A stretch of DNA of 62,033 nucleotides, filler included, from Hausera hauseri (lineage: Eukaryota), in NCBI GenBank assembly GCA_046269625.1. It is 12 parts of 12 records of this genome, joined end to end, with 100 filler letters (N's around TTAATTAATTAA, not from the genome) between each part and the next. Parts side by side here need not be neighbours in the genome. Positions count along the whole stretch, not along the records: positions 49,175 to 53,620 come from JBJURY010578116.1; 11 more parts are not named here. One strand, 5' to 3'. Position numbers and translations under genes: made by a program. A model generated the notes under the pieces. The model ran no database searches, was not told the DNA's origin, and worked only from the letters and a program-made list of their open reading frames with translations. Below, in pieces: positions 8,485-57,959 of the stretch; position 1 is the first letter of the stretch, and the number at the start of each line of letters is the position of its first letter.

Positions 8485-10228
8485 TTGCAAAAGGATTTGC
8501 AGATAAACCATACCTGTACAGGGAACGGAATGCAGCATCAGTTTTTATGAAGCGGTTGGAAAAACTAGCTCACAATAGTGAAGATATGAAACCACAGAAA
8601 ATGGTGATTGCCACCAGTGAGGAAGCCCAGTGGACGAATGCTTCAGTTTGTTACTTGTGTGCAAAGCCGTTTACCGCTGACAATTACAAAGTTCGGGATC
8701 TCTGTCACATCACGGGAAAATATCGTGGTCCAGCATGCAATTCTTGTAACTTCCGTTGCCAAACTGTTAAATTTATCCCCGTGATATTTCACAACTTAAG
8801 TGGATACGATTCACATTTTATTATCGGAGAACTAGGAAATGTGAGTGGAAAAACTGATGTTATTCCACATAGTGAAGAAAAGTATATTACTTTCACTGTG
8901 CATTTTGGAACGATACAGCTACGTTTTATAGACAGTCTAAAATTTATGAGCAGCTGCTTGGATCAACTGGTGAAAAATGTGCCAGAAGGTCAACAAATGG
9001 AGACTAGAAGATACTTCCAGAATGATAAATTCCATCTAGTTAAACGAAAGGGTGTTTTTCCCTATGACTACATAACGTCATGGAACAAATTTGATGAAAC
9101 CAGCCTACCACCTCAGAAAATGTTTTACAACAAATTTTCCGATTCGGGCATTAGCGATGAAGATTATGCACATGCGCAAAATGTATGGAGCTCATTCGAC
9201 TGTAAGGCACTGGGTGATTACAGTGATGTATATCTACTAACTAATGTGTTTCTTCTAGCCGATGTTTTCGAGAGTTTCCGAAATGTGACAATGGCAAGCC
9301 ACAAAGTTGATCCTGCTGATTTTTTCACGGCTCCCGGAATGACACGGTCAGCAATGTTGAAATACACAGGAGTTCAGCTGCAAGTGTTGAAGGACTACTA
9401 TATGATATTGATGTTGGAGAGGGGAATACGAGGTGGATTATGTCAAGTAGTTCATAGGTATGATTCAACTAAACAATCGTCATTCATCATGTAGCTGACG
9501 CAAATAATCTCTATGGGTGGGATATGAGTTGCAGCTTACTCTATGGAAATTTCCAATGGGTAGATGATTCCAATCAAACTGATATCATGGTTATTCCACC
9601 AGATGCAGAAACCGGGTACATTTTGGAGGTTGACGTAGTTTACCCGATATCACTGCATGACGAACATGACCAGCTACCGTTCCTACCGGAATCAAAACTG
9701 CCACCATCTTCACCACCAAATGGAAAATTTAAAAAATTATTGCTGCACTTGGACAATCGAAAACAATGTCAGCCATTATGTTGCTTTACAGCAGGCAGTG
9801 CCATATGACGTGCAGATTAAAAAAATTCACAGGGCTTTGCAATTCAGTCAGTCAAAGTGGCTTTAACCGTACATTAAATTTAATACGGACTTGAGGACTG
9901 CTGCAACTAATAATTTTAAAAGGACCAATTTAAATTGTACAACAATTCAGTATTTGGCAAAACAATAGAAAATTTCCGAAATCGCCAATGTACTGAATTG
10001 GTCAATTACTGGAAGAGAGCAAAGAAATTAATTGCAAAGCCCAATTTCCTCCACAGTGATATTTACACCGAAAACCTAGTGATCATCAGTATGGCAAAAA
10101 GAGCTCTTAAGTTCGACAAGCCAATCTACGTCGGCATGAGCATTTTGGACATGGCAAAAACTCTAATGTATGATCTTCATTATAATGTAATGAAATCGCG
10201 ATACCAGAATCAGATGCAACTAATGTAG
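8485..10228 (+). mobile_element. Protein-primed family-B DNA polymerase (Polinton/Maverick/adintovirus-like, endonuclease-VII-preceded type), frameshifted pseudogene
   Basis: CYLC...VRDLCHITGKYRGPACNSCN, FHNLSGYDSHFII, FIDSLKFM, RKGVFPYDY, GIRGG, DANNLYG, YILEVD, KLYNNSVFGKTIEN and KPIYVGMSILD across 4-5 broken ORFs. Confidence 0.9.
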
Positions 10229-12965: not shown

Positions 12966-15945
12966 CTCATGGGATCCATTTTTTACTTGATGGAGGACAG
13001 CACCTGCAGCTGTTTTGGATGCGTCCGTGGTTAAGAGGAGTTCTGTATGGGAGTCTGGATAGGCCAAGATTTCTGCGGTTTTTAAATTGTTTTTGAGGTG
13101 ATTGAAAGCGTTGACTAGTTTGGCGGTCCATTGAATAGGCTGTTTTTTTTGCGAGAGCTTAATGAAGCAAATAAAGCGGTTAGAGTGGAGCATGTGGAAC
13201 ATACTTATGAATAAAGTGCAAGGTTCTGAGAAAAGAACGTATCTATGTTGATATACGTGGTAGCTGTATGTTTTTTAGCTGTGGAATGCTGTCTGCTAAG
13301 GCGAATATCCGGAGGAGCTAATAACATGTCCTAGGAAATTGACCTCATGTTGAAAAAGAGCATTTGGAGAAATTAATTCGCAAGTTGTTTTGGTGCAAGC
13401 GCTGGAAGATCAAACGTAAGTGTTTAAAGTGTTGTTTCAAGGAGGATGGTGCAATTAAGATATTATCAATATATGGATAAACGAAGTCTCAACATGATAG
13501 GACTGTATCTATATGACCTTGGAAGGTCTGAGAAGCGCTACGGAGTTTATAAAAAGGTATTCGAAAAGGCCGAAGGGTGTAATGACAGCCGTTTTCGGAA
13601 TGTCTGCCGGGGCCACCGGAAGTTTATGGTATGCTTTGTGTAAATCAATACAGGAGAAGATGGTCGCACCATGGAGCCTGTGAAGGATATCGTTGATTAA
13701 TGGTAGAGGGTAGGCATCCATTGTTTTTATAGTGTTGAGTTGGCGGTAATCACCGCATGAGCGAAAGGTACCATCTTTTTTGAAACAACATGCAGTGGTG
13801 AAGACCAGGGAGATTTGGATCTTCTGATTATGCCTGATCTTTCCAGTTCGAGAAACTTAGCCTCCACTGCCTGTCTTCGACGAGGCAATAACGGACGGAC
13901 ATTTTGACGTATTGGTCTCTGATGTGCTGTTACTATGTGATGGAAGGTGGATTGAGGTGGTAAGAATAATTTGTCCTTGTGCAACAAAAGCATGCAGGAC
14001 TATGAAATATATTGCTGTAGATCAGAAGGCAATGATTGCAGATTATTCGATAGTGTCAATGCATCGTAACTAGATGCAGTTGACGTATGAGTTATAGACG
14101 AAGTGTTGTGACTGGGTGGTATTTGGTGCAAAATGTTCGTGTTGAAGATTGTGTTGGCAGCTGTGATATTAGTAATAGGTGCCACGCAGTTGGCAATATC
14201 GTATTTTTACCGTAGTAAAAATTTCTGTATAATGAGTGATTATAAAAATAATTTAAATCGGAAGTCGTTTTCTTCAGTATTGACTTTCTGGAAGCGATCG
14301 CCCGGTTGGTCACCAAAATGCTGGTAATTTGATTAAGATTATTTCCGCACTTTAAGGAACATCGTTTACAATCTACATATAAATTGTAGTGGGACAGAAA
14401 GTCTAAACCCAATATAGGTGTGCGTACATTGGCTACTGTAAATTTCCATGTGAATGTGTTTGGAAAGTGTGGAAGAGTGAACGTTAATTTAGTAACTCAA
14501 AAAATTTTGTAAAGCTTCACCGGACACAGTGAACAGTTGCTTTTTTGAGGTGAAATTGTTTTGGATGTGTTGTATTGGTGGCAGTAGAGAGATTGCTGCG
14601 TCAGTGTCTATAAGAAAGTTAATGCTTTGCTGTGTTAGAGTGATGACTGCTGCTTCCAACGTGAATACAGCAAAAGAAATGTGTCGGCTATCTTTCTGCA
14701 GGTTGGTGCCTTTGCTATGACTTGCCGTGTGTCCTAGCGGCGAAATCTGGTTTTTGTAGCTGGTGAGTTTGGCCTACTGTTTTGTGTGAACTTAGTAGTG
14801 TTGGTTTTATTGTGTGTGTTGTAGTTACAGCCAGGTAGGCATTTTTGTGCTTTTGTGCCAAATTTTGAGTGATAGATGCAAACGATGTTGCTTTTATTAA
14901 AATCAGGGGAGTATAATTTACAACCAATGCAGCATTTCTGAGCATTGCTACCAAATTTGCTATGATAATAGCCAATAGATAACCGCACGGGCGAAGGCGA
15001 CCGTCTCTAACGTTGATTATATACATTAGAAGAAACAGCCTTAGAAAAACTCTGTCGAGGCAGCGTTAATTTGTTTAATTTTTCGTTTATGTTGTTAATC
15101 GTCTTCTGTAACATTTCATTTTCTGTACGTAATTGCGCAATTTGTTGCTTCACCATTGCATTTTGTTAATGTTGGTCTGTTGTTAAAGCTGCAGAGACAG
15201 TTGGTGTTGTGTATGAGTGCAGTACTTCATATGCTTTGTCCGCCAGTTCGGCTAGCTTGTCCAGAGCCGTGGAGTCTTCAACGACAGTAAGCAAAGCTCT
15301 TATTTGAAGGGGCAATGTATTTAAAAAATAGTGGCGAATAAGTTCTGGGCTATGCTCATGTTACGCCAAGGGTGTTGAGATGAAACAAAGATGTGCGCAA
15401 GAATTTAGAAGGCTTCTGAAGGCCCATGGCGTTGTCGTTGAAGAATCTTTGAATGATTGAGTCGACTGACGGCTCAGTAAGCTTGAGAACTGCATTATAA
15501 AGTTGAGTATATGGGTCAGTGTGATGAAGGATGTCGATAATATTGGTAATTTTAGTTTTGATTGAAGCTGGTAAATGAAAAAATAGGCTGTTGGCTTTGG
15601 ATAAAGAGTCGACGACGTTTTGTGATTGGAGCCAGAAATGGTGCAGTTTTAGCCAAGTTTGAGTAGAGTTTTGCTTGTCGAGGAAGTATTTTGTGCAGGG
15701 TGAATGAGTGGGTAGTGTGTGTTGTGTCAAAGTGTTTGAAGCACTTTGTTTGGGTAAGTAAGTGATAGAGATCTGTGGTTTTGTGGGTTTGTTATTTAAC
15801 AAAAGGGAAATAAAATACGGAGATCGTGTGTCCGTGGCGTGTTGTGAAGCGGCAACGAAAGGTGCCGTCTGACCCAATGGTGCAGGGTGGGCGGCCGGGG
15901 CCTTAGCTTCGCCGCGGCGGGTCTCGAATTTCTGGGTAACCTAAA
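12966..15945 (-). mobile_element. CsRn1/Kabuki-clade-like Ty3/gypsy element copy 1 (leader, gag, protease, RT, start of RNase H), degenerate
   Basis: Gag with CHCC-type motifs (CIYHSKFGTKAQKCLPGC). Protease FLIDT and GLDFL. RT SPWSSPLH, AYPLP, FSCIDLHKAYH, KTAVITPFGLFEY. RNase H TTDASKTAAGAVLHQ. Confidence 0.92.
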
Positions 15946-16439
15946 TCCTTGCATGTAGCGTTTCCCCATCAGTTGTTCTGGCATTTATTATTTCTGATAC
16001 AAGGAGGTTGTAAGCACTCGACGTATTGACATGTTTTGATGAAATATATCTTCGCACAGCATGAACAACGCGACTGTAGAGTTTTCTGAGTATCCCCGTT
16101 TAGAGGTCATTAGGTGACAACAGGATGAATATATTCCGCAAATTATTCCTCGACTCATGAGAGACAATATCTTTGAGGCAAGAGTTGAAAAAAACTAATT
16201 GCTTGACAACGATGATACCTCGAAAATATTCCCAAATGTTTTTTATCGAATGTGTGTAGCGATTGCGACAACGTTTGTTTAATTGTTTAACAGGCGCTGG
16301 TGATTGTCGACGTTTATTCGACCAAAACAATTTTTTCGTTTCGGTCTTTATCACCGCTCGAATGTCAGCTACTTATTTGGACGAGTCTGAACCGTATTAA
16401 ACGGAGAGAATAAAATGTTTTTGGTGGAGAATGATGCCC

Positions 16440-16718
16440 AGTTCTTTATTGATTTCGTCTTCGATTAAACTTAGGCTAATTTGCCGTAGAGCCTTTTCAC
16501 AAGCCGAAGCAGTCGATTGCACAGTCTGTAATTCATCTTCGGTCGGAAAGATCAAACCATGTTTGGACAACACGTGTTTGTCGTCCAACGTATCAAATGA
16601 AGATCGTTTTCTCATCGACTGACCACTTTCCATTCCGTACAAATTTGGATTCGGTACGTTGGAATATTCCAAGCTTTGCATCTCACTCATTCTCGGGGTG
16701 GTGCAGTCTTCCCGTTTT
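16440..16718 (-). pseudogene. Isolated fragment of a ZFR/ILF3-family protein (start of the DZF domain)
   Basis: DTLDDKHVLSKHGLIFPTEDELQTVQSTASACEKALRQISLSL matches the ZFR pattern [23 protein letters not shown]...ERALKLVSD. Similarity stops without a GT donor. Confidence 0.7.
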
Positions 16719-17495
16719 CTATCTACTCACTATTATTTCTTCTGTCAACATTTGAGTGTTCATTTTGTACGTTTTGTGCGATTTGAATAAGGACAAAATA
16801 ATGCGAAACACTTCCTTATATAGTTTTGACGAACCACTTCTTTTATAAGCAAATTGTCTAAAACTATTAAAACATGGTAAATTTTCAATGAATGCATAAT
16901 TGTTGGTGTGCACGCACATCAAAAAAATAAAATCACACATTCTTTTTCTGAGATACACATTCACACACATTAGTAGATGAAAAATGAGAGTTCTGGCCCA
17001 AAGGCATATACCCCCTTTGAATCGATGCGTTTAAACAAAAATTAATTTCACGAATTGATAATTCGGTACTTATTTTTATCCCCCGATTGGGTGAATCCGT
17101 GATTATATAGTATTCCGTATTGGGTAAATCCGAAATTAGTACTTTTCCCGGATTTGGTGAATTCGTAATTATTTCTTTTTATCCCGCAAATGTCACATTT
17201 TATTAGTGTTTTTAAAAATGTCTTTGGCCGATGGTAATCATTCAATCGACACATACATTGCGCTGCTCAAAGTTAAGTATTTAATTTAATTAAATGAATT
17301 TACAAATATTTTAGGAAACTGTTAAGAAAATGAAAGATAATTTAATTGTAATGAATGGGTATGANNNNNNNNNNNNNNNNNNNNNNNNNNNNNNNNNNNN
17401 NNNNNNNNTTAATTAATTAANNNNNNNNNNNNNNNNNNNNNNNNNNNNNNNNNNNNNNNNNNNNATTACTCTATGCATATAGTACTTTTAATAGT

Positions 17496-17615
17496 GAATC
17501 CGTGAAATGTTTATTTTCTCTCCTTGCCTCATATTTTCATCCTCAGCATTTTCTGATTGTACATATGAAATTCTGATGACATTATTTATGTACATGAATA
17601 TTGTCTGTCCGAAAC
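17496..17615. repeat. Dispersed ~120-bp partly palindromic repeat (second copy 51522-51630)
   Basis: GAATCCGTGAAAT...CATCCTCAG.ATTTTCTGATTGTA.ATATGAAAT is shared between two contigs. Confidence 0.8.
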
Positions 17616-19498: not shown

Positions 19499-20240
19499 TT
19501 ATACTAATTGATATCGAATCCATGAATCAGATGAATTTGCAAATCTCAATGGCAATGACTGATCTGTATAAATGTTCAACATGCAGCTATTTGTACTTAT
19601 TTGCATGAAGGCACTTTTACAATATGGCTGCCTGTTCAAACATCTAAAAATTGCGACATTTTGTTAAGCATCAATACATTTCTTACTTAAAAGCACAATC
19701 CATTGTCGAAACGACAGCATATATCTCTGATTTGCCTTCATCAGCATCATTATTGACAACCATAATCAACGGTGAAAACATAATCCCTGATGGTTTAATT
19801 TGATCCAATACACAAATGACATCTGCAGAATACAACTGACTACACAGTAAATCTGCTAAGCCAACCAATGTCGAGACCCATTACAACACGCAATCTTGGC
19901 CAGGACTGCCATTATTTGGTTCATTGTAGATCCAGTTTTGAGTCTGTGTAAATATTGTTCCATCAAAATTCAGCCATCCATTTTTATTTGTGTATCGTTC
20001 ATTGACCAAATCTGATATTCCTACATAAAAATTGTTATTCATCCAATTCAGCTGTTTTATGTTATCCAAATCTGGTCCATTGGGTAATTGACCATTCATA
20101 GTTTCACAATATTGTGCAGCATCCCATACAGTCATTGATGTTGTTAAATTTCTTTTATAATATGTTTTACCATTAATAATCGATGTGTCTGCATTGGATA
20201 ACCCAACTAAACAAACAAACATAAAAACAAAGTCAATCAT
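19499..20240 (-). pseudogene. Secreted C-type lectin + PAN/apple-like domain gene, with an in-frame premature TAA (19883-19881); exons 20240-19687 and 19643-19499
   Basis: Signal peptide MIDFVFMFVCLVGLSNA; AAQYC, YVGISD, WIYNEPNN, DCV. 43-bp GT-AG intron 19686-19644. Exon 2 CLNRQPYCKS...CML. Paralogous to the adjacent gene with the same intron position. Confidence 0.8.
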
Positions 20241-20793
20241 AAATGAAATTAGAATGGTTAAAAAAGCGAAATCGTCATATTTTATTCAACGTCTAATAAA
20301 CTATTTGTACTGTCAACATGGCTACTTATTATTATGGTCAAATAAGAATAACGCATGGCTACACAACAACAATTATCTTCATGGATGATTGGAGGGTTGT
20401 GCAGAATGATGTCTTTACCAGTAAAATGACATTATTCCTTTCATATTTCTTTACTCGGATATAATAATAATACAAATATGAGTTTGTTAGGCTTATACGG
20501 ATTATTATCCATGTAAATTTGTCAATAAAACTGATCAATGAAACTAGAATTGTCCGTGAGATGTCCTTCCATAATTCATGTCTACCTGACAATAACATGA
20601 GTATCATTCATGGAGTTTAAATAAAAATGGATGACTCATATTCAACAGAACAAATCATACATACCATGTAAAGTAAAATACATATTTTGTAATAACTGAA
20701 ACTGATATGCGATTTGTTAGTGATGAGACCAGTCAATTTTGAGTATTACCAGTAATAAATTCCGACAAAATGTATCATTAGTAATTGAAATCA

Positions 20794-21558
20794 ATGTCAA
20801 AGTGGACAAGTTGGACATTTTATCGTGTATCATGGATATTACTCATGATTCCAGTAAATATTTGTGGGGCAGTCAAATACGAGATGATCAATGGGAAAAC
20901 GTATCATCGGAGAGAAGAAGTAAGGGAAATCACGGCCATGGATGGAGCACGATATTGTGAACAGGTCAATGGTCATTTGCCTTATGGGTATGAGCTAAAT
21001 GATATTGTATCATTGAATTGGGGTAATATGAAATTTTGGGTTGGTGTGTCAGATTTGCTGTATGAACGACACGTGAGTAGGTCTGGTTGGCTGAATTATG
21101 ATGGTACTGAATACAGAGAACAGAGTTGGTGCAATGATGAACCAAATGATTATAATGGAGAGCAGGACTGTACAATTCATTGGCCATCTTGTATGTTAAT
21201 GGATTACAATTGTATATCTGTCCAGGAGGCTGATGTTATATGCACCATCAATTTGATGAGTAAACAACATTCATTTTCATTTATTCTGTCGAATATGGTA
21301 ATCAATAATGACCCCAGTGAAGGGGATACTGAAATAATTGACCATTTGTCTTTGATGCAATGTTCCATCAGGTTTGTTGATAATATGAATAAATGAGGCG
21401 TTCATTTGTAATGCAGATGTTTCAACAGGCAGCAATATTGTAAGGGTATTTATTACGAAAATGTTACTGAAACGTGTATGTTGTCAATATATGTGGACCA
21501 GTCGTTGCCTAAACGGCTAACAAACAATCCAAATTGGAAACGTTACTACATGCAGTAG
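20794..21558 (+). CDS. C-type lectin (EPN motif) + PAN/apple-like domain protein; exons 20794-21371 and 21417-21558
   Basis: Hydrophobic leader; GARYC, FWVGVSD, WCNDEPND, DC..HW..C.LMDYNC. 45-bp GT-AG intron 21372-21416. Exon 2 CFNRQQYCKGIYY...CML, TAG at 21556-21558, AATAAA about 35 nt downstream. Confidence 0.88.
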
Positions 21559-38176: not shown

Positions 38177-38259
38177 TTTTATTTATGAACTCAGATAGTT
38201 TACCGATGTTAAATTTGTAAAATTGCCAATCGCTAAATTAATTATTAATTCTTTGCAAA

Positions 38260-41200
38260 CCGTCGTCATCACCGGTTCCAGATGTTGAATATGACAACTG
38301 TTCAAACGCATTGAAATTTGTGGAGAAATTTATCATTCAGTCAGATGGCTATATTTTGATCGATTGTGCAACGAATATTGTTTGTGGGCGGATTTTTAAA
38401 AATCGTGAACCGGTTTATACGTGCAGGGATTGTGCAACGGATGATACATGCGTTTTGAGCCGGAATTGTTTTATAAACAGTGAACATGCTAAACATAATT
38501 ATCAGATGTATACATCAGTCGGCGGCGATTGTTGCGACTGCAGTAACGCCGAAGCATGGAAATCGCAAACGCTCTGTACGTTGCACGGCGGTGTGGATAG
38601 TCAATCAGAACGCAGTAAATCAATTAAAGATCACGATAAATATTTGGCACAGATACCGGAAAACGTCAAAGAACAGTTCATTGCATTGGCGATATTTATC
38701 ATCGATAATTATCGGCGATTTCTTATGACCCCGTTGTGCAAAGGCAGCAAAGACGCCCGGGATGAAGCGCTGAAGAAAGAAATGGACATTCTTCAAACGG
38801 AATTCCCAACGATGAAAACTCAAGAGCTGACATTAGTGTTGTGCAACAATGAATATCACAATTTCGATCAGGTTGTCATTTTGTTCAAACGCTATCTGCA
38901 GTGTTCACGAGATCAGACGTTGGCATTTCCCAATGTTGTCGACCGGGACGGCCGATGTATGGCATTGATGTCGACCGATTACCAAGATCTCTACGATGAA
39001 CAGCGTGATATTCTCACCAAATCCAAACAGACGACGTACATGGAATTGTTGTGTCGACTGCATTATCCGGCGATTCTGGCCGTGCAGAATTTCCTCACGC
39101 ATGCACTCAAGTGGCTTGGGGAATTCGTTGAGATATTCGAAACTGCGCCTGTTGCTCTGTCGGTATATGCTGACGGATTCGCTCGTCGACGGTAGCCGTC
39201 AGATCCCGATGTTGGAATTTGTCGGGGATTTGTTCAATAAACATTGTGAAATGTGGAAAGCGGCACGTCGGGTCTCCATCAATTTTGTCATGACTACCGT
39301 ATTTAAGGACAACGTTTTTAAGAAATTGTTTGCATCAGAAACGATAAAGAATTACAAAGTTGTCGTGGATAATTTCGTTGTTGACGACCACAACGTTGAA
39401 GATTCTCTCATCAGTCTGACATGCCAACTGTTTACCGTCATCAGTGTGGGGAAATACTTACTGGAAACACAGAGTGCCCTCGAGATTATCCTCCAGATCG
39501 TCTACGACATGCTCGTCGAACACAGTCGTCCATTACCGATGCACGAACACATTAATCAATTCTACAAAGAAGAAAACGAAATACAAAAGAAATTTGATCC
39601 ATTCGAACGGCGATTTCGTGCCGTTGACGATACGAAATACATTTTACGGAGTTTGTTGACGTATTTGACGGGATGCGGTGAAAATGACGATTACGATCCG
39701 TTGGTGAATCCGAGCAATGATTTCAATGGTGCGTTATTGGACAATTTCCTATCGTATTTCCAGTTACTCGTGGACACATTTGCATTGATCCAGGATACGA
39801 ATACGATTGAACGAGTAACGGGGAATCATGTCGAACAAGATCCACAATGGAGAACGGGTATTATTATCATGTACGATTTGGTACCGTCGATATCTCTTAC
39901 TGCTGATATTATCGTATCGGATAAACAATGTTGGCAACGAGCATTCGATATTGCTCGTCAAGGATTCCAATCACGAATCGTTGCCATGGATGCACCACTT
40001 ATCAAACCATATCGATTACTCGGCCATTGGACAAATGTCGTCAGTAACGATTGGCCGACGAAATTCGTCAGTATTGTCAAACCGCTCCATCGAATAATGG
40101 CAGCATTGTTAACGAACGGTGAGTATCGTCGACAATTGCAGTCAGACGAGGCCGATTGTCTATTGGACCAGGCATTGCAAATGATCGTATTCTGTAGTCA
40201 ACAGGCTGGTAACATGTGGATTCGTAACGGATCTGTACCGTACATTCTCACACAACAAATGAAATCGATTTCATTATCCAGTGAAATGTTCGATCGTGAT
40301 TTACAACTCGTACAACAAATGGCAGCATTGATGTTGCCGGATGAGTTTCTGTTGAAGGTTATTCATAAATTCGATTTGGGGCAATTTATTGAGTGAGTTT
40401 TGTTCACCGATAGCTATTGCCATTGTTGTTGTTGTTGTAGTGGAGATTGCAGTAAACAGGACATGAAACCGCTGCTGCAGCGTGCAGAAGATTTCCTACA
40501 GCTGCTCATTACGACGTTATTTCATCGACATCGAATTGCAGTTGGTAAAGATATGACCGTAGAGAAGATCTATGAGAATATGTTATTGCATTTGTTATGC
40601 ATTAAACCCATGTCCCACAGTAAAATGATGAAGAAATTGCCACTTTGCCTACAGAAATATCCCAAAAATCGCCTATTGGCTATGATCAATCGAATATCCG
40701 ATCAAACTCGACAAGCCCAAGTCATCATTTTCAGCGCTAAACGGCAACTGATTGCCGATCAGTTCAATCGATTCAATCCGATTTATTCACTGCAGGATCG
40801 AAATGAAGCCGATTTATACGTACAGAATTTCCTGAAAACGGACGGCAATCCGTTAACGATTATCGTACCGCAACCGGTGTCATTGAGTGACGATTTTTCC
40901 GCTCTTTATCGCTACTTTTCCTGTCCGGTATTTGTTGACATTTTGAAACGATTTGTACGAATAATGGCAATTCGTCGCAATGGGGAAATGTGGAACGATA
41001 CGATATTGGATATGGTTCTTTATCTGATCAATGGGGCGTTATTGGAGGACGATGTTAACCGATTGGATGGCAATTATCCGTTATTTATTGATGCCGCTGG
41101 TAATACCGATGATTCGGTGAGTATTATCGGCAATTTGGAATTGCTCTGTGATAAAATAACTGGTGAACAACAATTGGAAATGGTCAAGTAAATAGGATTT

Positions 41201-43780
41201 TTATCAATTTACTATCTAATCCGTTTTGTCGTTGTTCTAGATGGACAATTAAGAAATGGCATGAAGTACGCCGTAAACGGACCGTCGGAGCATGTAATAC
41301 AGACGACTGCCCAATGGATATCGACGGTAACAACAAGGTTATGAAGGTTAGCCAGTCGAAAATAGCCAAAGCCGATGCGGCAAAACGACGACGAGAACAG
41401 CTGATGAATAAAATGATGAGAATGCAGAAGAAATTCATCAATGAAAATTCCAATTTACTGTTATCGGACACCGATTTACAATCGACTGACCAACAGACGT
41501 GCATTTTATGTCAGGAAAATGATACGGACTCGTTACCGGACCGTGCATTGGTGGCTATTGCCGGTGCATGGCGGTCTACAGTTATGGCCCGACATCCGTT
41601 TACTAAGGATATTCCCGGCAATTCGATTCCGGATCGTCGACGGTTGTCTGAAGATTCTTTGGTAAATTGAAATTATCGGCATTTCTTCTATATTCCCCCT
41701 CCTCCCCTTATGAATAGGAACGGCAAATATCCCCTAACGCACCACACGCCAACACTGAATCAATTGACCGAATTGCACCACGACAAATCGTAACGATGCT
41801 CGACCATGCCGAAGAGACATTCGTGACGACATGCGGTCATCTGATGCATTTCGACTGTAAAACGAGATATCTCGAAGACATGATCAAACACAAACGGAAC
41901 ATCGCTAAGTCAAAGGGCGTGTTGTATCCACAAATATTCACTCGATGTCCGCTGTGCAAATGTGTTTACAACATCGACATCCCCGTCGTACGCAATGCAC
42001 AATCTACTGGCGAACTGTTTGGATTTGCGGACCATTCATCGACAGTATCATTCGATAGTTGGTGCGATTGGCTCGCTGGATGGATGCCGACACACGTCGC
42101 GACATCTTGCACAACAGAACAACCGAAAAAGGAGTGGAGTTTCGTTAGGTTTCTCAAGACGAAAGTCGAACACAGTTGGAGTTATCTGATGCGCAGTGGA
42201 CAGCAGTTTACATCGAGCAGCTGTCAGACGACAACAGACGAATTGTTGGGTGCATTGGCGTATCGTTTGTCATTGGCGATTAAATTCCAGCCGACAAAAC
42301 TAACGAAGGAAACGTATCAGCAATTTGAGAATGTGAGGACGAGTTTCAGAGAAAGTACAGCACAGGAACTCATTGAGATGGGCTATGCTATAATGTACAC
42401 GACGGTGACACGGGAACTAATACTAGACAAACAGTCAGAGTCGTTGTTGACAGACATGCCTGAACGGCACAATGACGGGATACGGCGGATGGTGCATGCA
42501 AATTGTCGTGCCATGCGCACCGCCGACAAGGACCAACATCACAGTCTCCAATCATTCGTTCAGCTACCGCACACTCTCCTGTCCAACCCGATAAATGCCC
42601 ACTTTGCCTGGTCTGAATTACATCGTCAAACGGTACCCATATTCATTCTGGAGACGGATTTTTTCTATGTGATGTCATCGGTATTTTTTGCGTTACCATC
42701 TAGACGGGTCAACTGGCAAAACGAGAAGTCCGTATATCGACAGGGACACATACAATCTGCACACTGTCCGTTACATTTACCAACTACAGTGTGTGCAGAT
42801 CATGTTGTCTGTCCAACAATGTCCTACTGACAATGCACTACTCGCCGATGACTCATCGGATACTGCAGATCAACTGTGGCAATTGCGGCAGTCTGTCGGC
42901 ACGCATTGTCCGCTCGTACGGCTGGCAGATTTGTCACCTGCGCAACTGTTCGCTGCTTATAAGCGTAGTTTGCTGCCGTTTCTGCGATGTACCACATATC
43001 TACTGTCCTTATTGGGAACTGTGAAATTGCCGACACAGCCATTCGGTAATTTCCCTCCCTCCAATCACATTGGTCCATTATCGACGTACTGTTGTAGATG
43101 ACACCAATGCAGAAATATCTGCCATTATGAAACTACTGCAGCTGGAACTGCTGCCATTTTCCCATGACCATTTACCGTCATTCGTCGACAAACATTTGAA
43201 ACAGCTCATCAAACCGTGTAAACTTTCTATGACGTCATTATGGGGTACTAACCTGCCGCACAAAATACCATTCGATTATCCTGCGTTAATCGAACTGCCG
43301 ATGGATTTCACAGACGTCATCACTCGGTGCATGGATCGCGGATGCAGCTTCAGTCGACAGATGAACAGTCACGTATCGGATCTTGTCCTTTGTCTGATTT
43401 GTGGTGAAACGTTCTGTCTCAATGGATATTGTTGCAACCGTGTCGATGATCAAGTCGGTGCACAAATACACGCACGACAAATTCATGGTGGCTATGCCGT
43501 GTTCCTCAATGCTCGTAATTCAAAGGTCGTCGTGTTATTCTATCAGGCTCGTTGGCAGATTCATATGGATCCGATTTACTTTGACAGATTCGGTGAAAAT
43601 GACGTCGAACTCAAGTAATTGTTTTTTGTGTCCCTTATTCGGTATTTTTACTTCAGTAGACGTGGCAATCCGCTGTTTCTCAATACGGATGTCTACGCAC
43701 GGCTACAGCGCAGTTGGCTCGATCACAGTCTCGGCTGTGTCATCAACGACGGTTTGCTTTCCACCGATTTCTTTGTGTGA
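38260..43780 (+). pseudogene. UBR1: N-recognin E3 ubiquitin ligase UBR1/UBR2 homologue; 5 short introns, 2 frameshifts, no ATG
   Basis: UBR box CGRIF...YTCRDCATDDTCVL..CF..SEH..H...CDC..AEAWK. ClpS-like LCNNEYHNFDQV. HLLCIKPMSHS. RING CILCQE...CGHLMH..C...CPLC. C-terminal CLICG...YFDRFGE...RGNPL. Introns 40393-40440, 41188-41240, 41662-41717, 43046-43097, 43615-43659. Frameshifts near 39140 and 42720. Confidence 0.88.
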
Positions 43781-45046: not shown

Positions 45047-45464
45047 GATGTTGATATCCGGTTATCAGAATATTAATTTGGGACGTTAATTGAAGGCCTC
45101 ATTAAGATATTTCGACAAAATTTTAAACAATATGAAAGAAGAACATTTTAATGTTGTATAAATATGAAAGTAAAAATAAACTATATTGCATTGCGTTCTT
45201 TGTCATTTTTGAGAATAAATCTTGCGGAAGAATTATAAAAGTTCTAACTAAAAGAAAATTAGTCGTTGAATATGATTCTGAGTTCGTTATGAGTGAAAAA
45301 ATAAGTTTCATTTTCGATTCTTACTCTTGGATTTTGTTTCAGTTAAGTAATGGAATACAAAACTTCCTCAAAAAATGATTCACGATTTCACTTATGTGAT
45401 TTTTGTTTATTTATAATTAGAATATTTTGTTTAATTCATTGCCGTGTTTTGTGCTTTTTCAAAC

Positions 45465-48461
45465 ATGACCCTAACTGAAGGAGAACAAGATGCGCCAAGA
45501 ATTGCAATAATTATTCATCCTTCAGATGTCAGAAATATTGTGACTAGAACTGCCGAGTTTGTCGCACGTAATAGTCCTGAATTTGAAACAAGAGTTAAAC
45601 TCAATGAGGCAAATAATCCAAAGTTTAATTTCTTAAGCAGCACAGACCCGTACAATGCATACTATCAAGATCGTGTCAAACAGTATATTGAAGGGACCGC
45701 TGAGTCAACGTCATTGCGAATATCTGCACCGACTGCCATGAAACTGGTTCAAGAGACACCAAAGGCTATTCAAGAAGTATTTGAACCAAAAGAACCACCA
45801 CCGGAGTATGAATTTATTGTCGATCCACCAAGTATCAACGGGCTGGAATTAGACATTGTAAAATTGACAGCGCAATTTGTTGCAAGAAATGGCCGTCAAT
45901 TTTTAACACAGCTTATGACCAGAGAACAGAGAAATTATCTATTTGATTTTTTGCGTCCGCAGCACAATATGTTCAGTTATTTTACAAAGCTTGTCGAACA
46001 GTTTACAAAATATTGCTACCGCCAAACGACATTGTTCATCGATTGCAGGACGAAGCACATGATCCGCAAATATTTATGAAAAATTGTAAATATCGTGTCC
46101 ACTGGGAACGTTATCAAGCTAGAATTCGAAAGAAGGAAATGGAATTGGAGGACAAAGAACGAATGGCATATGCTCAGATAGATTGGCACGATTTTGTAGT
46201 TGTTGAGAACGTTGATTATCCGTTGAATGAAATTGGAAATTTCCCTCCTTTGACACTTCCTGAAGAAGTTGGCGCAAGAGTTATTGCGGAAGAAAGAGGC
46301 GAACAGATTATTCCAGTATTGGTTGAAGATAAACAAGTCGAGGAGATGGAAGAGGATGTGGAAGATGAAGAATCTGAAGAGGAAGAAGACGAAATTGAAG
46401 ACATCAATGTTTCCGAAAAACGGAAAGAAGTCGATGAGGACATGGAGAATGATGATATGGAGCTGTCAGATCAAGAAGATGGTGGTGTCGTTCCCCCGCC
46501 TCCTCCAACTCAGTCTGCTGCTTTTAAGCAGCCTGCACCAATTTCTGATTCTGATAAGACGAATCTTATCAATCCAGATGAAGTCATTGTGAAACAATAC
46601 AATCCTAAATCTAAACAGAAGAACATAATTGATCAGGTTAGTATTTATTTATTGTTTAATTAGGCTATTCAAGCGCTAATTTATTGCTGTGTAATTTCTT
46701 TTTGATCTGTTACTTTATTTTATTGAAGTAGATGTAGTAAATATGACACTTCGTCGTTTATTGTATTACTGACTACGTTCTGAGAAAATTTATCACTTTC
46801 ATAACATATCCTCACATTTATTATAGGACTAACCCTATAATGACACCATTTTGAAAAATACATTAACATTTTGGTTAGTTCAACAAAATCCAGTAGTCTC
46901 AACGTTTATAATCTGCTTTTCATATCTTGATCAACAGCATTCCATAGTTGCCTGTTGTCCGTCAACAACAGTTGAACATAAATCTATGCAACATGTATCG
47001 TTTCAACGAATCTCCTTTATTGGAACATTATTCGATAACAGTAATTTTTCTGCGAAATGATTACAACCTTTGTTCTTTCACCGGAGATTTTGTTACTGCT
47101 TAATAATTATTTGTTTAAACAATAACTTCGTGTTGTTTTTCATTTCATAATTATGAAGTACCAGGATTCAGGGATTTCTGGGTGACAGTAAAAATAACTT
47201 AGTTCAACACAATTTTAGTTCCGTTAAATTTAGTAGTATGACAAAAATATTCAGTCAAATTTTCGTTTTTTAATTATTAAATTCATATGCAATTCATCTG
47301 ACCTCCGACGAAAGGTAGAAAAATACGTGGTTGTGTATTATAGATTCAAAGTCGTGTGTCATCGTTAATTAAAAGTAATACTTCAAGATTTCTGTTTGTA
47401 TCCGGGGGCTTTTGGGGGTTAAAGCTCCTCACATGGTATCTGAACTCAACATTTTTATTATTTGATCTAACGCCTCATAAATTTTATTTTTTGTGATGTT
47501 TTAAAGTTTTAAAATTTTTACGAATGACCGAACGTAAACATTATAAAAGGTTTAATGTTGTGAGCCACATATGCAAGAAGTGCGGTAAATCAGAATCAAC
47601 ATGTTGGGAACCACATATGCAAGAAGTGCGATAAATCAGAATCTACATGTTGGGAACCACATATGCACATAGCTTTTGATATTATGTAATAAGTAACGCC
47701 ATTTGAGAAATTCTGGACGACACTGTTTGCCTATTTGCTAATAGAATTGTAAATAATTTTACTCATCCTAACTAGTTTAATATCAAAGTATTTTTCAATT
47801 ATATTTTCGAAGAATATCTAAAATTTCTTTGAAGCATACAAAATAGATGTAAAACTTCACCTAAGCAGACAAATTTTTTCTATATTTTAACAATTCAACT
47901 TTCTAGCAATATTTTTATTCTATTTGTCATTCATTTTCAAAATCTTAGGTTTTACTCGTATCTCCTTTGGGAGACCAGAAGAAGGTATCTACCGATCAGG
48001 CGAAAAAGCACATTCATGTTTCTTTATTGAATCCCCAATGGAAAGCCCAAAAAGATCGTTCAAACCGCAATCGTGCTGCGGATGATTCAACTTATGCATC
48101 GGGCTTTAATGTTAATGAAAACTTAAAGAAAATGGCAGAACGTCGAACAGATATATTTGGTATTGAAGAGACTGTTATTGGTAAGAAAGTTGGAGAAGAG
48201 GAATCTAGAAAGAGTGATAAATATTCATGGGATGGTCATTCTTTGACTCATGAAGCGACAATTAAACGTCCATCTGAAATCACTACGCGTGTGGAAGAGA
48301 AAGAAGTTGATTTAGATAGGATCGGACCTCAAGCCGTTCCGCAACCTCCGCCGGCAACAACAATAACAATAATTGTGAACACACCTATAATTACACCTGC
48401 TGTGTCTCAAATAAGTTGTAACAGCGGCGAACCAGAAGAAAAGAAGATAAAACGAGAATAA
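45465..48461 (+). CDS. SF3A1: Splicing factor 3A subunit 1 (Prp21); exons 45465-46636 and 47949-48461; one-base frameshift in an A-run near 46010
   Basis: Two SURP domains (RNIVTRTAEFVARN...KFNFL...DPYNAYY; DIVKLTAQFVARNGRQFL), AQIDWHDFVVVE, LKKMAERRTDIFG. Phase-0 GT-AG intron 46637-47948. Confidence 0.9.
47565..47667. repeat. 46-bp tandem duplication (about 2.2 copies) in the SF3A1 intron
   Basis: CCACATATGCAAGAAGTGCG.TAAATCAGAATC.ACATGTTGGGAA repeated. Confidence 0.95.
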
Positions 48462-49174
48462 ACATTTTGTATATAGATCAACTGATTCTTTGTTGAAAAT
48501 ATACGTTTAGTTTTGTCCATTTTATTGATTATGTAAGTATTGTGTGTCAAAGTTACCATTAGATGTTATACTTTTCTATCATTTAGTACGATTTACGTAG
48601 AAATTTTAGTTAATGGTGTAGAAATGGCTACCAAATGCCTATATTAACGTAATATTTTCTATTTACATCTGTGAATTCTCCTAGAAATATCGTCTAATAC
48701 AGGTGTAGGGAACAGCAGGCTTTGAGAAATTATTGTAGCATTTGAGACACGCAGGCAAAGTAGTATTTTGCGGCCTCGCAGAAGGTTTTTACGTTTAAAA
48801 ACATAAAAACAGTTATTATCTTTGCATAATTCACGCAAATATACTTCGGGTGCCAATTAAATATTGATCAAACTGTGATACCAGAAAAACAAATATAATT
48901 GAATAAAATCTTACACCTTTATTCTGTAACACTGTCATCTAATGCGGTAACTGCCCGTAGATGTTCCTTTAATGTTCCAAGTTTGTGGAGAAATCGATCA
49001 GGCAGTATGCTGTTGAAGATGTGCAACGCAGCTATTTCAGTCTCCTGCAGAATCGAAGTTTTGTTTTCGTAGTTNNNNNNNNNNNNNNNNNNNNNNNNNN
49101 NNNNNNNNNNNNNNNNNNTTAATTAATTAANNNNNNNNNNNNNNNNNNNNNNNNNNNNNNNNNNNNNNNNNNNN

Positions 49175-49704
49175 ATAGATCCAGTCCACAGTCACAGGGT
49201 ACCTGTACAGGTGGCATACCAAAGAGGTTATTTTGATGAAGAGATGAACCAGATCTTATCTGATCCAGGTGATGACACCAAGGGTTTCTTTGACCCCAAC
49301 ACCAAGGAGAACCTTACATACCTGCAGCTGATCGAAAGGTGTATTACAGATCCTGCCACAGGTCTGAGTTTACTGGTCATTGTGAAGAAAGGCGAGTTCT
49401 ACTTCTTTGTTGATGAAGCCACAAAGGCCATCTTAAAGTCTACAACAACAACCAAAGCTGGAGGAAAATACAAAGGCACCACAGTTTCTCTGTGGGATTT
49501 GCTTTACTCCAAATACATCACAGAGGAAAAGAGGAGAGATCTTGTCCAGCAGTTCAAAGCTGGAACACTCACCATCCAACACTTCTTGTAAATCATCTTG
49601 ACCATCATTCAGCAGAAGACAACCACAACAACAACCACAACAATCACAGAGACTACTGAGGAAAAAACCTTAAAGGGAATCAGAAAAGATGTCAATTTGA
49701 CTGA
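49175..49704 (+). pseudogene. Vertebrate (teleost-like) epiplakin/plectin repeat fragment with in-frame TAA at 49589-49591
   Basis: [64 protein letters not shown] is a canonical plectin-repeat (B domain) end, followed by the [19 protein letters not shown] linker. Confidence 0.9.
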
Positions 49705-50479
49705 AAGTTCATCAGAAGAAGTAACGAAAATTGCAACTAGAAAACCGCAATGTCAGTGTCAAAATTCAATAAAAGAAAACATCGACCGAACAAAACCGAC
49801 AATTTGTTACCGATGTTGTGACAACAACACATCGACCCTCACTGATTCAATGAGAATGGATTCGCGGAAATTCCAAAAGCTCATAAAGCGTTGTACATCG
49901 AAATCCGTACTTGGACGTGTTAAGCAATCGTTGTTTACAAATCCCGAAGATTACGAGCAATTTTTGTTTGATAAGAACAATTTACATGGAAGGACATTGG
50001 AAGAACTCGTGCGAAATTATGAAAACTGTTTTAATGAAGATGTTCGACGGGAAAATGCATGTTTCTTTGACAGAAGTCGTTTCCGAAATTTCGATGGAGA
50101 TTCGTCTGACTCAAATTTGAATTTTTTGTTTGACATTGCTCTCAAAGGTGCAGAAAAATCATCAAAATTGATGAAGACAAATCATTTTTGATGGACTAGT
50201 GAGATGCATGATTGATGAAGATGGATGGTGAAGATGACGGATTATCTCAGAAAGAAGAGAGAGCAGCACAGCGCACAAAAGTTTCATCAGAGAGAAAGCG
50301 ACGAGAGGATGAGAGAAAGCAAGCGAGTGCTACACACCTAGTATCTTGCATTATGTACCAGCATGGGTTGCATGTCCCGTAGCATGTAATGCCCCATTGA
50401 GTGACTTGATACTGTTTATAAGAATTAAGCAATATGCTTATATAAACAAGGCAGTTGCATAGGCAGCATGCAAGAAGTT

Positions 50480-51448
50480 GACGAATCATTTATGGTACAT
50501 AGGACCAGAGATGATTCCGCTGTCACTGTTTTCAAACAATGTTTCTCTTGAGGAGAAGTAGTTGATTGTTGATGCCATGGTTCACAGTGAGAATGACTGG
50601 AGTGTCATAGGGATGAAGTACCCAGTAGCTGAATGTAATCAGTTCGATAACAAGCAACTCCGTGAGCTTGTAACATCTTCGTCAACTGCTGCTTTGCAGT
50701 CATGGGCTAGACATAGCTGTTTTGTCTGAAACTGATCCACAGACTTAGAAAGCAATTTCTGAATATCGTGAAACCAAAACAGTTATCACATCTGTGAAAG
50801 TTGTGTATGATGCTGCAGAACGCTCAATTGCCCTTATGAGCACTTTCAGCGTGTCCATTACGAAGACGGAATCAGAAATGCAGAAACTTATACAAGTTGT
50901 CAAGGACAACAGAAAGCGTATTCCTGATTCCTGCAGGAGCTCCTTAACTAAATATATCTCTCTTTAGACTTTACAGATTACAAACTTGCAGACAGATTTG
51001 AAAGACAGATATTAGCCTTGTCAGAGCCATTAAGTCTTTGTATCCATGACTTTTTACAAAATTGCTTTTCTGAGACTCTATGTACGGTACAATAAATACA
51101 TACTACATGCACCAGGACAACGTCAATTTTATGACTTTTTGGAATTTTGAATAAAGAAATTGATTGAAATTTACAGTTGAAATTTGATTATACTTGTCAT
51201 ATTGTAAGTTAAACCTGAAATTGCATGTATTTATCACGTTTCTTGTCTACTCTTAAGTCTGGACTATAACTGTGGTTAACGAGTAGTCGCGGCGACATAG
51301 GTTTAACATGCTAAATGTTGCCTTCTTTGAGCAACCTCTAAATATCATTCAAATTAACTAAAAATGGGCACAGAAATCACCTTCCATGAAAGGAACAATA
51401 TTATAACTTGTGCAATATGGAATTAAAAAAGGAACTTTTGGACATCCC
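50480..51448 (+). mobile_element. DDE DNA transposon 3' remnant (HLWY...VVNDxAER type, probably Sola2-like)
   Basis: NHLWYIGPEMIPLSLFS; LKVVYDAAERSIALM...TKTESEMQKLIQVVKDNRKRIP; possible terminus ...GGACATCCC at 51448. Confidence 0.6.
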
Positions 51449-52154
51449 TAGTGCATATAATAGTTTAACTATATACATCCAAAATTAAGCAAATTTTGCA
51501 TTATTTTTTGGTTGTCTGACAGAATCCGTGAAATTTTATTGTCTGTCCATTCTTCAGATTTCCATCCTCAGAATTTTCTGATTGTAAATATGAAATCATG
51601 ATAATATTATCTATGTATATGAAAATTTTCACAGTTGGAAATTGGTCACTACAGTAATAGTTCCCTTGTTATATTCAGGAATTTGTAGTGATAATGGTGT
51701 TTAATGAACTGTTGTGATGTTACCTAATAACATAGGGCTGCATCATTCATTAATAATACTACTGATAAGGCTCGGATCCACCGATGGGGCGTTGGGGCGA
51801 ACGCCCGGCATGAAAAAATAACTAAAAAAATTATTACAGAATTAAGAAGTACTGTAATAGAATTAAGTTGTAATACCGCGTAATTCAAGTCGGTCTGCCT
51901 ACCCAAAGACCCAACGAACTAATATATTTAATTTTCCACCGGCCTCCCATACTTGATGTGTCACGTGCCACGGTGTCACATATGTTAAGCCTAGTATTCT
52001 TGTGACGTACTCAATTTCTAAGTTTCTAGCTTTGTCTTAACGGAACACATAGGTACATGTTGGATTCCTACATGTGTGAGTTCCCAAAGGCATCTTCTTT
52101 ATCTTTGTTCTTTCATATAGTAAAGTGTATACTCAATAAGATACTTTACGGTCC

Positions 52155-52379
52155 AGGGGATGCGATCTGAGGATCATAAAATGCGCGAAATTGTTCGGTC
52201 GCCGGGGCTTTGCTCGGACTCCAATGGGAAGCTTACAACGCTTCCCCAGACCTCTAGCTGTTGGGGTGAAGGTTACAACCTCCTCTCAAAGAACCCAACT
52301 CACCTCGGCTCTTCGAGCCACGCTCTTATCGCCTCCGGTGATAATACCCGGAATTTTAAAAATCCTGGATCCGCGCCTG
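52155..52379. mobile_element. GC-rich MITE-like remnant with hAT-like terminus
   Basis: GC island containing CCGGGGCT...GGGAAGCTTACAACGCTTCCCCAGACC.CTAGCT and ending CCTGGATCCGCGCCTG (reverse complement CAGGCGCGGATCCAGG). Confidence 0.5.
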
Positions 52380-52849
52380 GTGGTACATGCCTCGAACCAA
52401 TTTTTACAAATCGATTTACTTGAAAAATTACAAATTTATATTCGTCCGAAATGCGGCATTAGAATAACACTGAATATCTTTAGTAATATTTAAACGCGAT
52501 TACTTTGTTTTGAAGGCTTCACGAATATTTTTCTTGCACATTCTTAAATCTCCATTGGTAGTCTTCAATCAATATTTCCATCCATGATCTGTTGAGAACT
52601 GACTTGTCAATATTTTATTTCATTTTTATATAGTAGCAATTTCTGTACAAATATTTAATTTTCTTTTAATATTCTAACAATCCGAAACATTCATTTATTT
52701 TATGATCGCTAACTCTTTCTAAGTATGTTTCTGCGCTTCTTATATAAAAGTACTGAAGTAATTTGTTGAACACAATAAAAAGTTTTAGCTGGTCTTTGAA
52801 TTTTTACTTTCTACTGACAGGTACGAAGTGGTTTATTCGAGAGACGAGA

Positions 52850-53620
52850 TTGATAATTGGTGATTACAGCGACACATATCTGAAGACAGATGTATTACAT
52901 ATTCGAAAGCTTCAGGAATGCCATTGTGCAGTCTCACAAACTGAGCTACACGTGTTTTTTCACTTTTCAGAGAATATCATGAGCAGCGTTGCTCAGGTAT
53001 AATGGAGTGAAAATTCACATTCATAAGGATTACAACATGATAATGATGCTTAAATGATGGATATATGGAAGAATTTGTAAAGTAGTGAATCGACGTGCAA
53101 ATAATCATTATGTTAATCGTGATGAAACAAAACCGTCATTTTTCATCACATATTTGGATGTCAATAATTTCTAAGGTTAGGTAATGGGCGTCAGTCTTTC
53201 CTACGAAAATTTCAAATGAGTTGAAAATCCGAATAGCATAGATATCACAAGCAGTACAGATGATGCTGAAACAATATTTATCTTTCAGGTAGACATTTAA
53301 TACGATTGACTTCAATATGTAGAACATGACTAGTTGCCTTTTCTACCAGAATCAAAAAATCCACATTACCGAAAATTCAGAAAATTGTTAATCTATCTGG
53401 TTGATAGAGTAGACACGTTGTACATTACATAGACTTGCAACAGACTTCTGAATGGTTCATTGTAAACAAAGTGCATTGGGCTTTTGCAATTCAGTCAATC
53501 CAAATGACTTCAATGGTATATTCAATTCCATTCAGACCTGCGAACATATGTGAAAAACGTTTGCAAAAAATCAACTCTAATTGTACAACAACCATGGAAA
53601 ATATGAGAAACATGCTGCCG
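52850..53620 (+). mobile_element. Second, highly decayed protein-primed polB remnant
   Basis: IGDYSDTYLKTDVL, HKDYNMIMML and LYNN..MENMRN are colinear with the polB at 9210-9985. Confidence 0.7.
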
Positions 53621-54142: not shown

Positions 54143-54322
54143 TGTATAGATCCGTAGAGACGCTGTATATATGTATATATCTATTTTATGTGTATTATGT
54201 ATATAAATTATGTATTGATTATCAATTTGTAATTTTAAGTTTGAATATAACTTTTCTTGTGGATTTATTTCATCATTTCTTGGATTTATTTCAACCTAAT
54301 AAAACATACACTGGTGTCAGAA
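54143..54322 (+). mobile_element. Short LTR (TGTAT...ATACA, 168 bp, AATAAA at 54298) + tRNA-Leu PBS TGGTGTCAGAA (54312-54322)
   Basis: TG...CA with a 5-bp inverted repeat, poly(A) signal just inside the 3' end, 1-nt spacer, then the PBS. This is the standard 5'-LTR layout of gypsy elements. Confidence 0.7.
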
Positions 54323-54347
54323 CCATTGGAATTATTTTGCTAATTAT

Positions 54348-55860
54348 ATGCACATGAATGATCCTAAAACTGCAAATAGAATGACTTATCTCGATCGCAT
54401 CAAAGATGTTTGTCACTGTCGAAATTTGGAAAATATCATTTTAAAGTACCTTTATTCATTGGATGAGATCAGCGATCTGGTGAACAATGTTAACAAATTC
54501 TGTCTATTAGTGGGCGTTATTCAGTGCTTAATGGGTCTACTGCAGTTGGGATATTTGACACGGTATTTGTCAGATCCTCTCTTATCCGGATTTACCGTTG
54601 GTGCATCTGTCCATGTTTTAACGAGTCAGTTAAAATTTTGTTTTGGACTCAACTTCAAAACTATGCCAGGAAATTTTTATGTCGTAAAGACTATATATAA
54701 TATTTTCAAAAGTATTGATAAAACAAACACTCAAACTCTCGTTTTAACTCTATTGTGTATGGCTTTATTGTTCGTTAATAAAGAACTTATCAGTCCTCGA
54801 GTAGTCCCATTGATAAAAGCTCCAATTCCAATGGAACTTGTTGTGGTTGTTTTCTGTACACTTACATACTATTATTTAAAGCTTAATTGGAACCACAGTG
54901 TATTTGTTGTTGGAAAGATCGACCAAGGCCTTCCAATGCCAACTGTTCCAGATTTGAGTAATATTTCCAATTTCATTGGAGATGGAATTATTACGGCCGT
55001 GATTGCATTCTCAGTGTGTACATCATTGGCCAAAATATTTGGGAAAAAACATGGATATGTAACAAACGCAAATCAAGAACTGGTTGCATATGGACTAATG
55101 AATTTTGTATCGTCATTTTTCCTCTGTTACCGCGCTGCCGCATCTCAGTCGATCAGCAGTTCAAGAATCAGTTGGTGGTAAAACGCAATTATCTTCAATT
55201 ATTTCCTCTACTTTATTATTATTTGTTCTACTTTTTATCGGACCTTTATTTTGTACTTTGCCAAAAGTATTTGATATCAACAGTCTTGTGTGTGTATTTA
55301 TTTTGTTTAGTGTATTCTTTCATCGATCATAATTGTTGCATTGAAGGGAATGTTCATGCAATTTGATGAGTTAAAGGAACTTTGGCATTTTTCAATTTGG
55401 GATTTTGGAACTTAGATCATAACGTTTTTCATTATTGCATTTATTAGTGTGGAAATTGGTTTAATTGCCGGTGTTGCACTTTCCATTTCAACAGTGATGT
55501 TTCGAACTCACAGTCCAAATTCACACATTTTAGGGCAAATCGATGGAACGGATATCTACAAAAATGTTGATGTTTCTGAAAAGTGCCAAGAAATTGAAGG
55601 AATAAAAATATTTCGATTCGAAGGAAGCTTGTATTATGAATCCTGTGAACATTTTCGAAAAACGTTATTTACAAAAGTATCATGTGATCCCAGAAAGGTT
55701 AAATATTATATTTCTAAGTACGAGAACAAAATCAGGAAATTGGACGATTCAATCGGAAAGTTGAATAACCAGTATGACGTGGAGATTACCGATGCGCCTA
55801 ATCAGAAATATCCTCGACCGAAAAATTTGAAATTTCCAAGAAATTTAATGGTACTAAAGA
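54348..55860 (+). pseudogene. SLC26 (SulP/prestin-like) anion transporter, internally deleted, with part of the STAS domain
   Basis: LLVGVIQ...LGYLTRYLSDPLLSGFTVGASVHVLTSQLK; PIPMEL; NQELVAYG; LSRSAVQESVGGKTQ; IFRFEGSLYY. The first TM helices are missing; frameshift near 55150; TAG near 55413; retained 44-bp intron 55267-55310. Confidence 0.92.
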
Positions 55861-55864
55861 AAGA

Positions 55865-57959
<2,095 letters not shown>

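Follow-up and report, generated by a model that had tools for sequence, protein, structure and literature searches.

Composition of the locus

The window analysed here is a stretch of 62,033 nucleotides from the Hausera hauseri assembly GCA_046269625.1, made up of 12 short contigs joined end to end by artificial spacers. One of them, a 4.4-kb contig (49175–53620), lies directly behind such a spacer and opens, at its base 1, with a piece of fish DNA that continues in frame into unrelated sequence (Table 1). The fused stretch takes up 1017 bases from the start of the contig, and the 5′ side of the fish piece lies outside the view. The remaining contigs have the look of an invertebrate animal, with CpG near expectation, retroelement remnants and a polB family. 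Broken intronless housekeeping genes are also present on other contigs of the window. For comparison we used seven of the 24 sequencing runs listed (X1, X2, X3, X4, X6, X7, and X11), in the form of assembled contigs, not raw reads. An Rfam search of the window gave no match.

Table 1 Features at the fish–native junction and in the rest of the contig, with the evidence for each.
Feature	Position	Strand	Evidence
Artificial spacer (N44, TTAATTAATTAA, N44)	49075..49174	.	Window composition
Percomorph (probably killifish-group) epiplakin fragment: end of plectin-repeat domain and Thr-rich linker	49175..49705	+	Pfam, protein searches, tree, ~98% DNA identity to fish-like runs
TAA, in frame	49589..49591	+	4/4 covering runs read G (GAA, Glu) across their full depth
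21-base word common to fish epiplakin and native multicopy family	49685..49705	+	Exact in X4 and X6; homologous in X1 contigs
Native orphan family X, CpG-rich	49685..50137	+	Several 86–92% copies in X1
Probable second overlap, 21 bases (up to 27)	50117..50137	+	End of X1 family-X piece; start of transposase-like homology
Decayed, internally deleted DNA-transposase-like remnant	50117..50966	+	Metagenome relatives; multicopy in X1, depth 40–130
Native dispersed repeat, common to the contig at 17465	51522..51630	+	84% to 17496–17605; depth >700 in X1
Decayed protein-primed polB remnant	52856..53579	+	46–69% aa to PF03175 gene near 8487–9932

A fish epiplakin fragment opens the contig

Between 49175 and 50191 the TAA is the sole break in frame +1, the first part of which encodes a plectin repeat (PF00681, E 2e-10). 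CpG content changes sharply across 49705/49706: the 531 bases of 49175–49705 hold 2 CpG (o/e 0.08) compared with 24 in the 486 bases of 49706–50191 (o/e 1.53; Fisher p 6e-9). None of 1078 sampled 531-base windows, taken at a step that missed the fish piece itself, held 2 CpG or fewer. A protein search with X at the stop yielded 1072 candidates, 570 of which reached E 1e-20 or better. In the 120 of the 570 that are listed, every named match is vertebrate (two rows carry no organism), and the best full-length identity among these 120 is to Fundulus epiplakin. The nearest protein is an epiplakin-like sequence from Fundulus diaphanus (P0025; 92% identity over 175 aligned columns), and 176 amino acids align full length to teleost epiplakin repeats at 60–90% identity. 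At the DNA level the piece is ~98% identical to the fish-like runs. We also built a tree of 30 rows, using the best repeat per species and zero invertebrate rows, there being none among the named matches. It placed the fish piece inside a percomorph clade with support 95/96; the grouping with Fundulus and Crenichthys (82/79) is not firm. On these sequence comparisons, the assignment of 49175–49705 to fish epiplakin, grouping with fish over other plakins, was confirmed.

The first-pass annotation had described a fish-like epiplakin/plectin piece with a Thr-rich linker, carrying a premature TAA and switching near 49705, in frame, to CpG-rich DNA; each element of that description was borne out. 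The piece is no intact multi-repeat epiplakin frame, only 531 bases with a TAA at 49589, and it had no intron to lose, the fish contigs being colinear with it here.

A 21-base word is matched on both sides of the joint

The switch from fish to native sequence lies at 49705/49706. Six of the seven compared runs (X2, X3, X4, X6, X7, and X11) depart from the window after 49705, all with the same loose end, and read on as epiplakin. Over 49640–49705, X4 and X6 show one difference from the window, at 49672, so the word at 49685–49705 is exact in both. Three contigs of a native family in X1 begin to fit at 49685, 49685, and 49686 (depths 5.8, 7.6, and about 5.8, respectively), and their upstream sequence is non-fish. 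Because these native contigs fit from 20–21 bases inside the fish match, the word belongs to both partners. The native paralogues carry 5–8 differences over 62–69 bases, mostly at unlisted places; the word is probably exact in the native copy at this locus.

In the 8 listed of 12 X1 records, none was seen to run from fish DNA upstream of 49685 into native DNA downstream of 49705. As we read the depth table, a hidden bridging record would not fit into it, the depth at 49715 being that of two listed records. We considered an X1 contig of depth 5.8 that lacks the C at 49672 as a bridge and rejected it as a partial match ending before 49715. X1 is also missing an exact native piece over 49706–49904, and rare variants are dropped from contigs; the absence of a bridge thus counts for little.

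The remainder of the contig is native

What had been annotated as one CpG-rich coding sequence proved to be two things: an orphan family (family X, 49685–50137) and a transposase-like remnant from 50117. An exact copy of family X is present in X1 at depth 3 over 49905–50137, and the family encodes a Cys cluster (CQC..CYRCC). No relatives were found by word-index search (12 candidates), in the Atlas, in Pfam, or among 1.84 billion representatives, where the lone match (P0144) was rejected as a short-repeat artefact.

The remnant behind it, which we take to be DNA-transposase-like, had no relatives in a first scan and 11 metagenome loci (L001–L011) in a second. Its close relatives in metagenome contigs share 74–77% DNA identity, and it lacks about 390 codons compared with L004. 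Pfam gave no family for the remnant or for two long relatives. Judged against the metagenome relatives, homology starts at 50117, perhaps at 50111: identity is 16/21 and 15/21 at 50117–50137 versus 5/21 and 6/21 at 50090–50110. An exact X1 contig of 444 bases fits only 49905–50137 among the pieces listed (1212 more are unlisted), and the listing gives no joint for it; if that record ran on unseen, it would end at 50348, which is another listed joint. A second overlap of 21–27 bases, at 50117–50137, is therefore probable.

The rest of the contig also belongs to this genome, as the first-pass annotation had it, and the repeat and polB remnant that it named are both real. In X1 (share 0.47), six listed pieces of the contig's rest match without difference (1902 bases in total, depth 3–8), and native single-copy pieces there have depth 3–8 with holes. 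The 3′ neighbours of the fish piece are thus family X and the DNA-transposase-like remnant; comparison of the contig with this window's own LTR elements gave no match.

Fish and native DNA occur in X1 at similar depth, with fish epiplakin at ~3–12, so host DNA was co-sequenced with the carrier organism. The fish DNA within this one run suggests that the carrier is a fish parasite. X1 is one possible source sample of the window. In X7, low depth over native repeats (window 50218–53495) was seen besides fish DNA; this run may include a small amount of DNA from a related invertebrate.

The stop codon and the donor

With G at full depth in all four covering runs, the stop is private to the window. 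Glu occupies this site in 54/64 teleost repeats. In all, the window has five letters that almost none of the fish depth carries, of which two are silent, two are missense, and one makes the stop. One missense change is Asp to Gly, with Gly found in 6/64 teleost repeats, and the other Phe to Leu, at a Phe kept in 54/64. In the core (49401–49705), the list for X2 shows two differences only, the stop and the Phe change. Both are G:C to T:A, a pair that suits errors in singly covered DNA no less than neutral decay. Over 49371–49705 there are 5 differences in X2 and 6 in X3, two runs that cover the fish part only, with zero depth in bins from 49771 on.

The exact donor is absent among the fish DNA of the seven runs compared (closest ~98%). 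The fish DNA of X1 itself differs from the window at a minimum of 11 listed places, so if X1 were the source, the piece would not come from its main fish. The first-pass annotation had held that near-complete identity to a host fish, without sequence spanning the joint, would speak against transfer. The second of these was seen, in that no bridging contig appeared in the listed X1 records; the first was not, no compared fish being 100% identical.

Two local irregularities were noted in the fish part. In a block at 49341–49370, 14 of 30 letters, counted by eye, differ from X2, X3, and X7 within epiplakin sequence otherwise 98% identical, perhaps through gene conversion between repeats in the fish lineage of these runs. 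In X1, a branch at depth 3.5 lacks three fish alleles over 49333–49357; with the branch at 8.2 it adds up to the fish path at 11.9, and on that account we read it, tentatively, as a fish repeat copy.

The stop had been taken to favour an integrated, decaying copy. We computed that under neutral decay a stop arises in ~3% of changes. A single stop is explained equally well by neutral decay and by a sequencing error where data are thin, and so lends no support to integration; it excludes only that the piece faithfully copies a fish gene in working order.

Gene fragments and repeats on other contigs

Several other contigs carry broken genes. At 54303–57775, pieces of an SLC26-type transporter, an axonemal dynein, ATP-citrate lyase (ACLY), and KAP3 lie head to tail and intronless, the last three in a single open frame (56765–57775). 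These dynein/ACLY/KAP3 fusions seem real, and their joints, judged on vertebrate orthologues, span about two codons or less. A UBR-box E3 ligase gene of ~5.4 kb (38242–43615), with no evident introns and many frameshifts, is probably a dead retrocopy. An SF3A1-like gene (Surp, PRP21) at 45435–48458 has a frameshift and a 1.3-kb gap; its placement in the Atlas went no deeper than Eukaryota. Three related retroelement remnants (12966–17364, 28361–35140, and 35241–36100), Gypsy-like by eye, share 65–69% DNA identity, and the last abuts the UBR gene. The contig at 22586–28260 is a tandem satellite with CpG o/e ~3 and AT skew ~-0.85, and at 19884–21393 lie two similar short divergent genes, one of them a C-type lectin by Pfam.

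Discussion

The piece is fish and opens its contig, and three contigs of a native family also match over its last 21 bases. We think it likely that the fusion is an assembly mis-join with host DNA. Most likely it is not a feature of any genome, and we regard the fused frame as without function. Of the two origins offered in the first-pass annotation, transfer and chimeric assembly, it is chimeric assembly that the evidence supports better.

In the mechanism we propose, the fish piece would come from host DNA in the sequenced sample, and an assembler working with short words would link fish to native at the 21-base word present in both. At k = 21 the shared word would be one graph vertex. At coverage 1–3 both true continuations could be missing or clipped, which would leave a single path, fish then native. 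The same event probably recurred 430 bases on, at 50117–50137. The stop and the Phe-to-Leu change would probably be read errors left uncorrected, or else rare variants, where cover of the host DNA was thin. A small-k mis-join is expected at low cover and at a contig end, and both are present here (depths from X1).

The number of such words can be estimated. Genomes of 700 Mb and 500 Mb (sizes assumed) would have ~4e5 exact 21-mers in common, and one 10-kb and one 5-kb molecule ~6e-5, or 0.13 with 2 mismatches allowed. Because an assembler sees all words at once, it has ~4e5 shared 21-mers in view against 6e-5 for a pair of molecules. In a toy graph of random sequence with 400 shared words, k = 21 and coverage 1–3 gave a single chimeric path for 18–32 of them; none arose with fish coverage 10, or at k = 31 or 33. 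This model speaks to plausibility only. Several points weigh against a mis-join: a join at k = 21 would fail if the native word carried mismatches, the missing bridge is weak evidence, the exact donor is absent from the fish compared, the main fish DNA of X1 is unlike the piece, and the second joint rests on a partial piece listing, in which the 444-base record may run on. SPAdes has 21 as its default smallest k. Use of k = 21 as the smallest SPAdes k also appears in a published analysis (PMC12999062), and the assembler of this window may be another.

A chimera made in the laboratory is unlikely. In that case, during whole-genome amplification or library PCR, the 21-base match would have let a strand of fish DNA prime on the native template, and the resulting molecule would have been sequenced and assembled. 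It would need no exact match, and it would explain the thin, uneven cover and the extra errors; chimeras in multiple displacement amplification (MDA) prime at 2–21 complementary bases (PMC1855051). Against it, the same study has 85% of chimeras as inversions, mostly within one molecule, and complementarity at only about one-third of joins between distant segments, and a match of 21 bases stands at the top of the MDA range (PMC1855051). The seven runs compared carry no library record, and the probable second overlap of at least 21 bases suits a fixed k better.

Very improbable, in our estimate, is a real and recent host-to-parasite transfer, in which template switching guided by homology copied fish epiplakin RNA or DNA into the genome, where the copy is now in decay. 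The five private letters, among them the stop and the change at a widely kept Phe, would fit such a history, as would the piece's unlikeness to the main fish DNA of X1 and the occurrence of fused gene fragments in this genome (dynein, ACLY, and KAP3 in one frame). Earlier claims of vertebrate-to-schistosome transfer, including salmonid DNA, have however been put down to contamination (PMC13155389). A single junction is seen here, at a contig start and with 5′ native DNA absent; X1 yielded no bridging contig in its listed records; the contig has no match to the window's LTR elements; and the overlap is long. We give an equally small chance to the broader proposal that a fish parasite whose retrotransposons routinely capture fragments of its own genes also captures host gene fragments, with the epiplakin piece as a young, dead product of ongoing uptake of DNA from the host. 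The link to the capture machinery raised in the first-pass annotation is weak, since none of the window's LTR elements was matched in the contig and the native fusion joints are short, not 21 bases; the fish joint is of another kind than the joints of dynein, ACLY, and KAP3. Plakins are generally present in invertebrates, but a native plakin merely resembling fish epiplakin has a negligible chance: the ~98% DNA identity to fish-like runs refutes it, and the listed named matches are vertebrate, in keeping with the tree position among percomorphs.

If the fusion is a mis-join, as we favour, it is a warning only: the assembly holds host DNA fused to native contigs, and the joints of each fish-like insert in it should be examined for a word of ~21 bases common to both sides. 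A real fusion would be a rare case of ordinary coding DNA passing from a vertebrate to an invertebrate, and would link host uptake to an active capture process of this genome, in a field where earlier claims failed on contamination (PMC13155389).

Our literature search combining epiplakin, horizontal transfer, and parasite found no paper, and we compared the junction with four known systems. Teleost epiplakin, as in Fundulus diaphanus, has the same short linker and plectin repeat and runs colinear with the window to 49705. In contrast, the window piece is only about half of one repeat unit, has an in-frame stop, and is joined to unrelated DNA.

De Bruijn assembly is known to be prone to false overlaps at shared k-mers (PMC3861042). 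Like the joint in the window, they join unrelated sequences at a short word, at low cover and at a contig end. The joint here differs in that its word is homologous, and only probably exact, on the native side, and the assembler of the window may be a different one.

The refuted host-to-schistosome transfers (salmonid repeats, albumin, and MHC, reviewed in PMC13155389) likewise concern near-identical vertebrate host DNA in parasite or invertebrate data that was read as transfer. In the window, by contrast, a single contig carries host piece and native sequence in physical union, and a specific cause of the join can be seen.

LTR-mediated retrocopies also bring a partial coding piece to a joint at shared bases. 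In Tan et al. 2016, all 15 retrocopies are flanked by LTR elements and the median microsimilarity is 6 bases (PMC5131818). Measured against these, the window piece has no visible LTR flank, a donor of another species, one junction only, and an overlap of 21 bases where the median is 6. It is the native joints of dynein, ACLY, and KAP3 that, at their short length, agree with the 6-base median of LTR capture given there.
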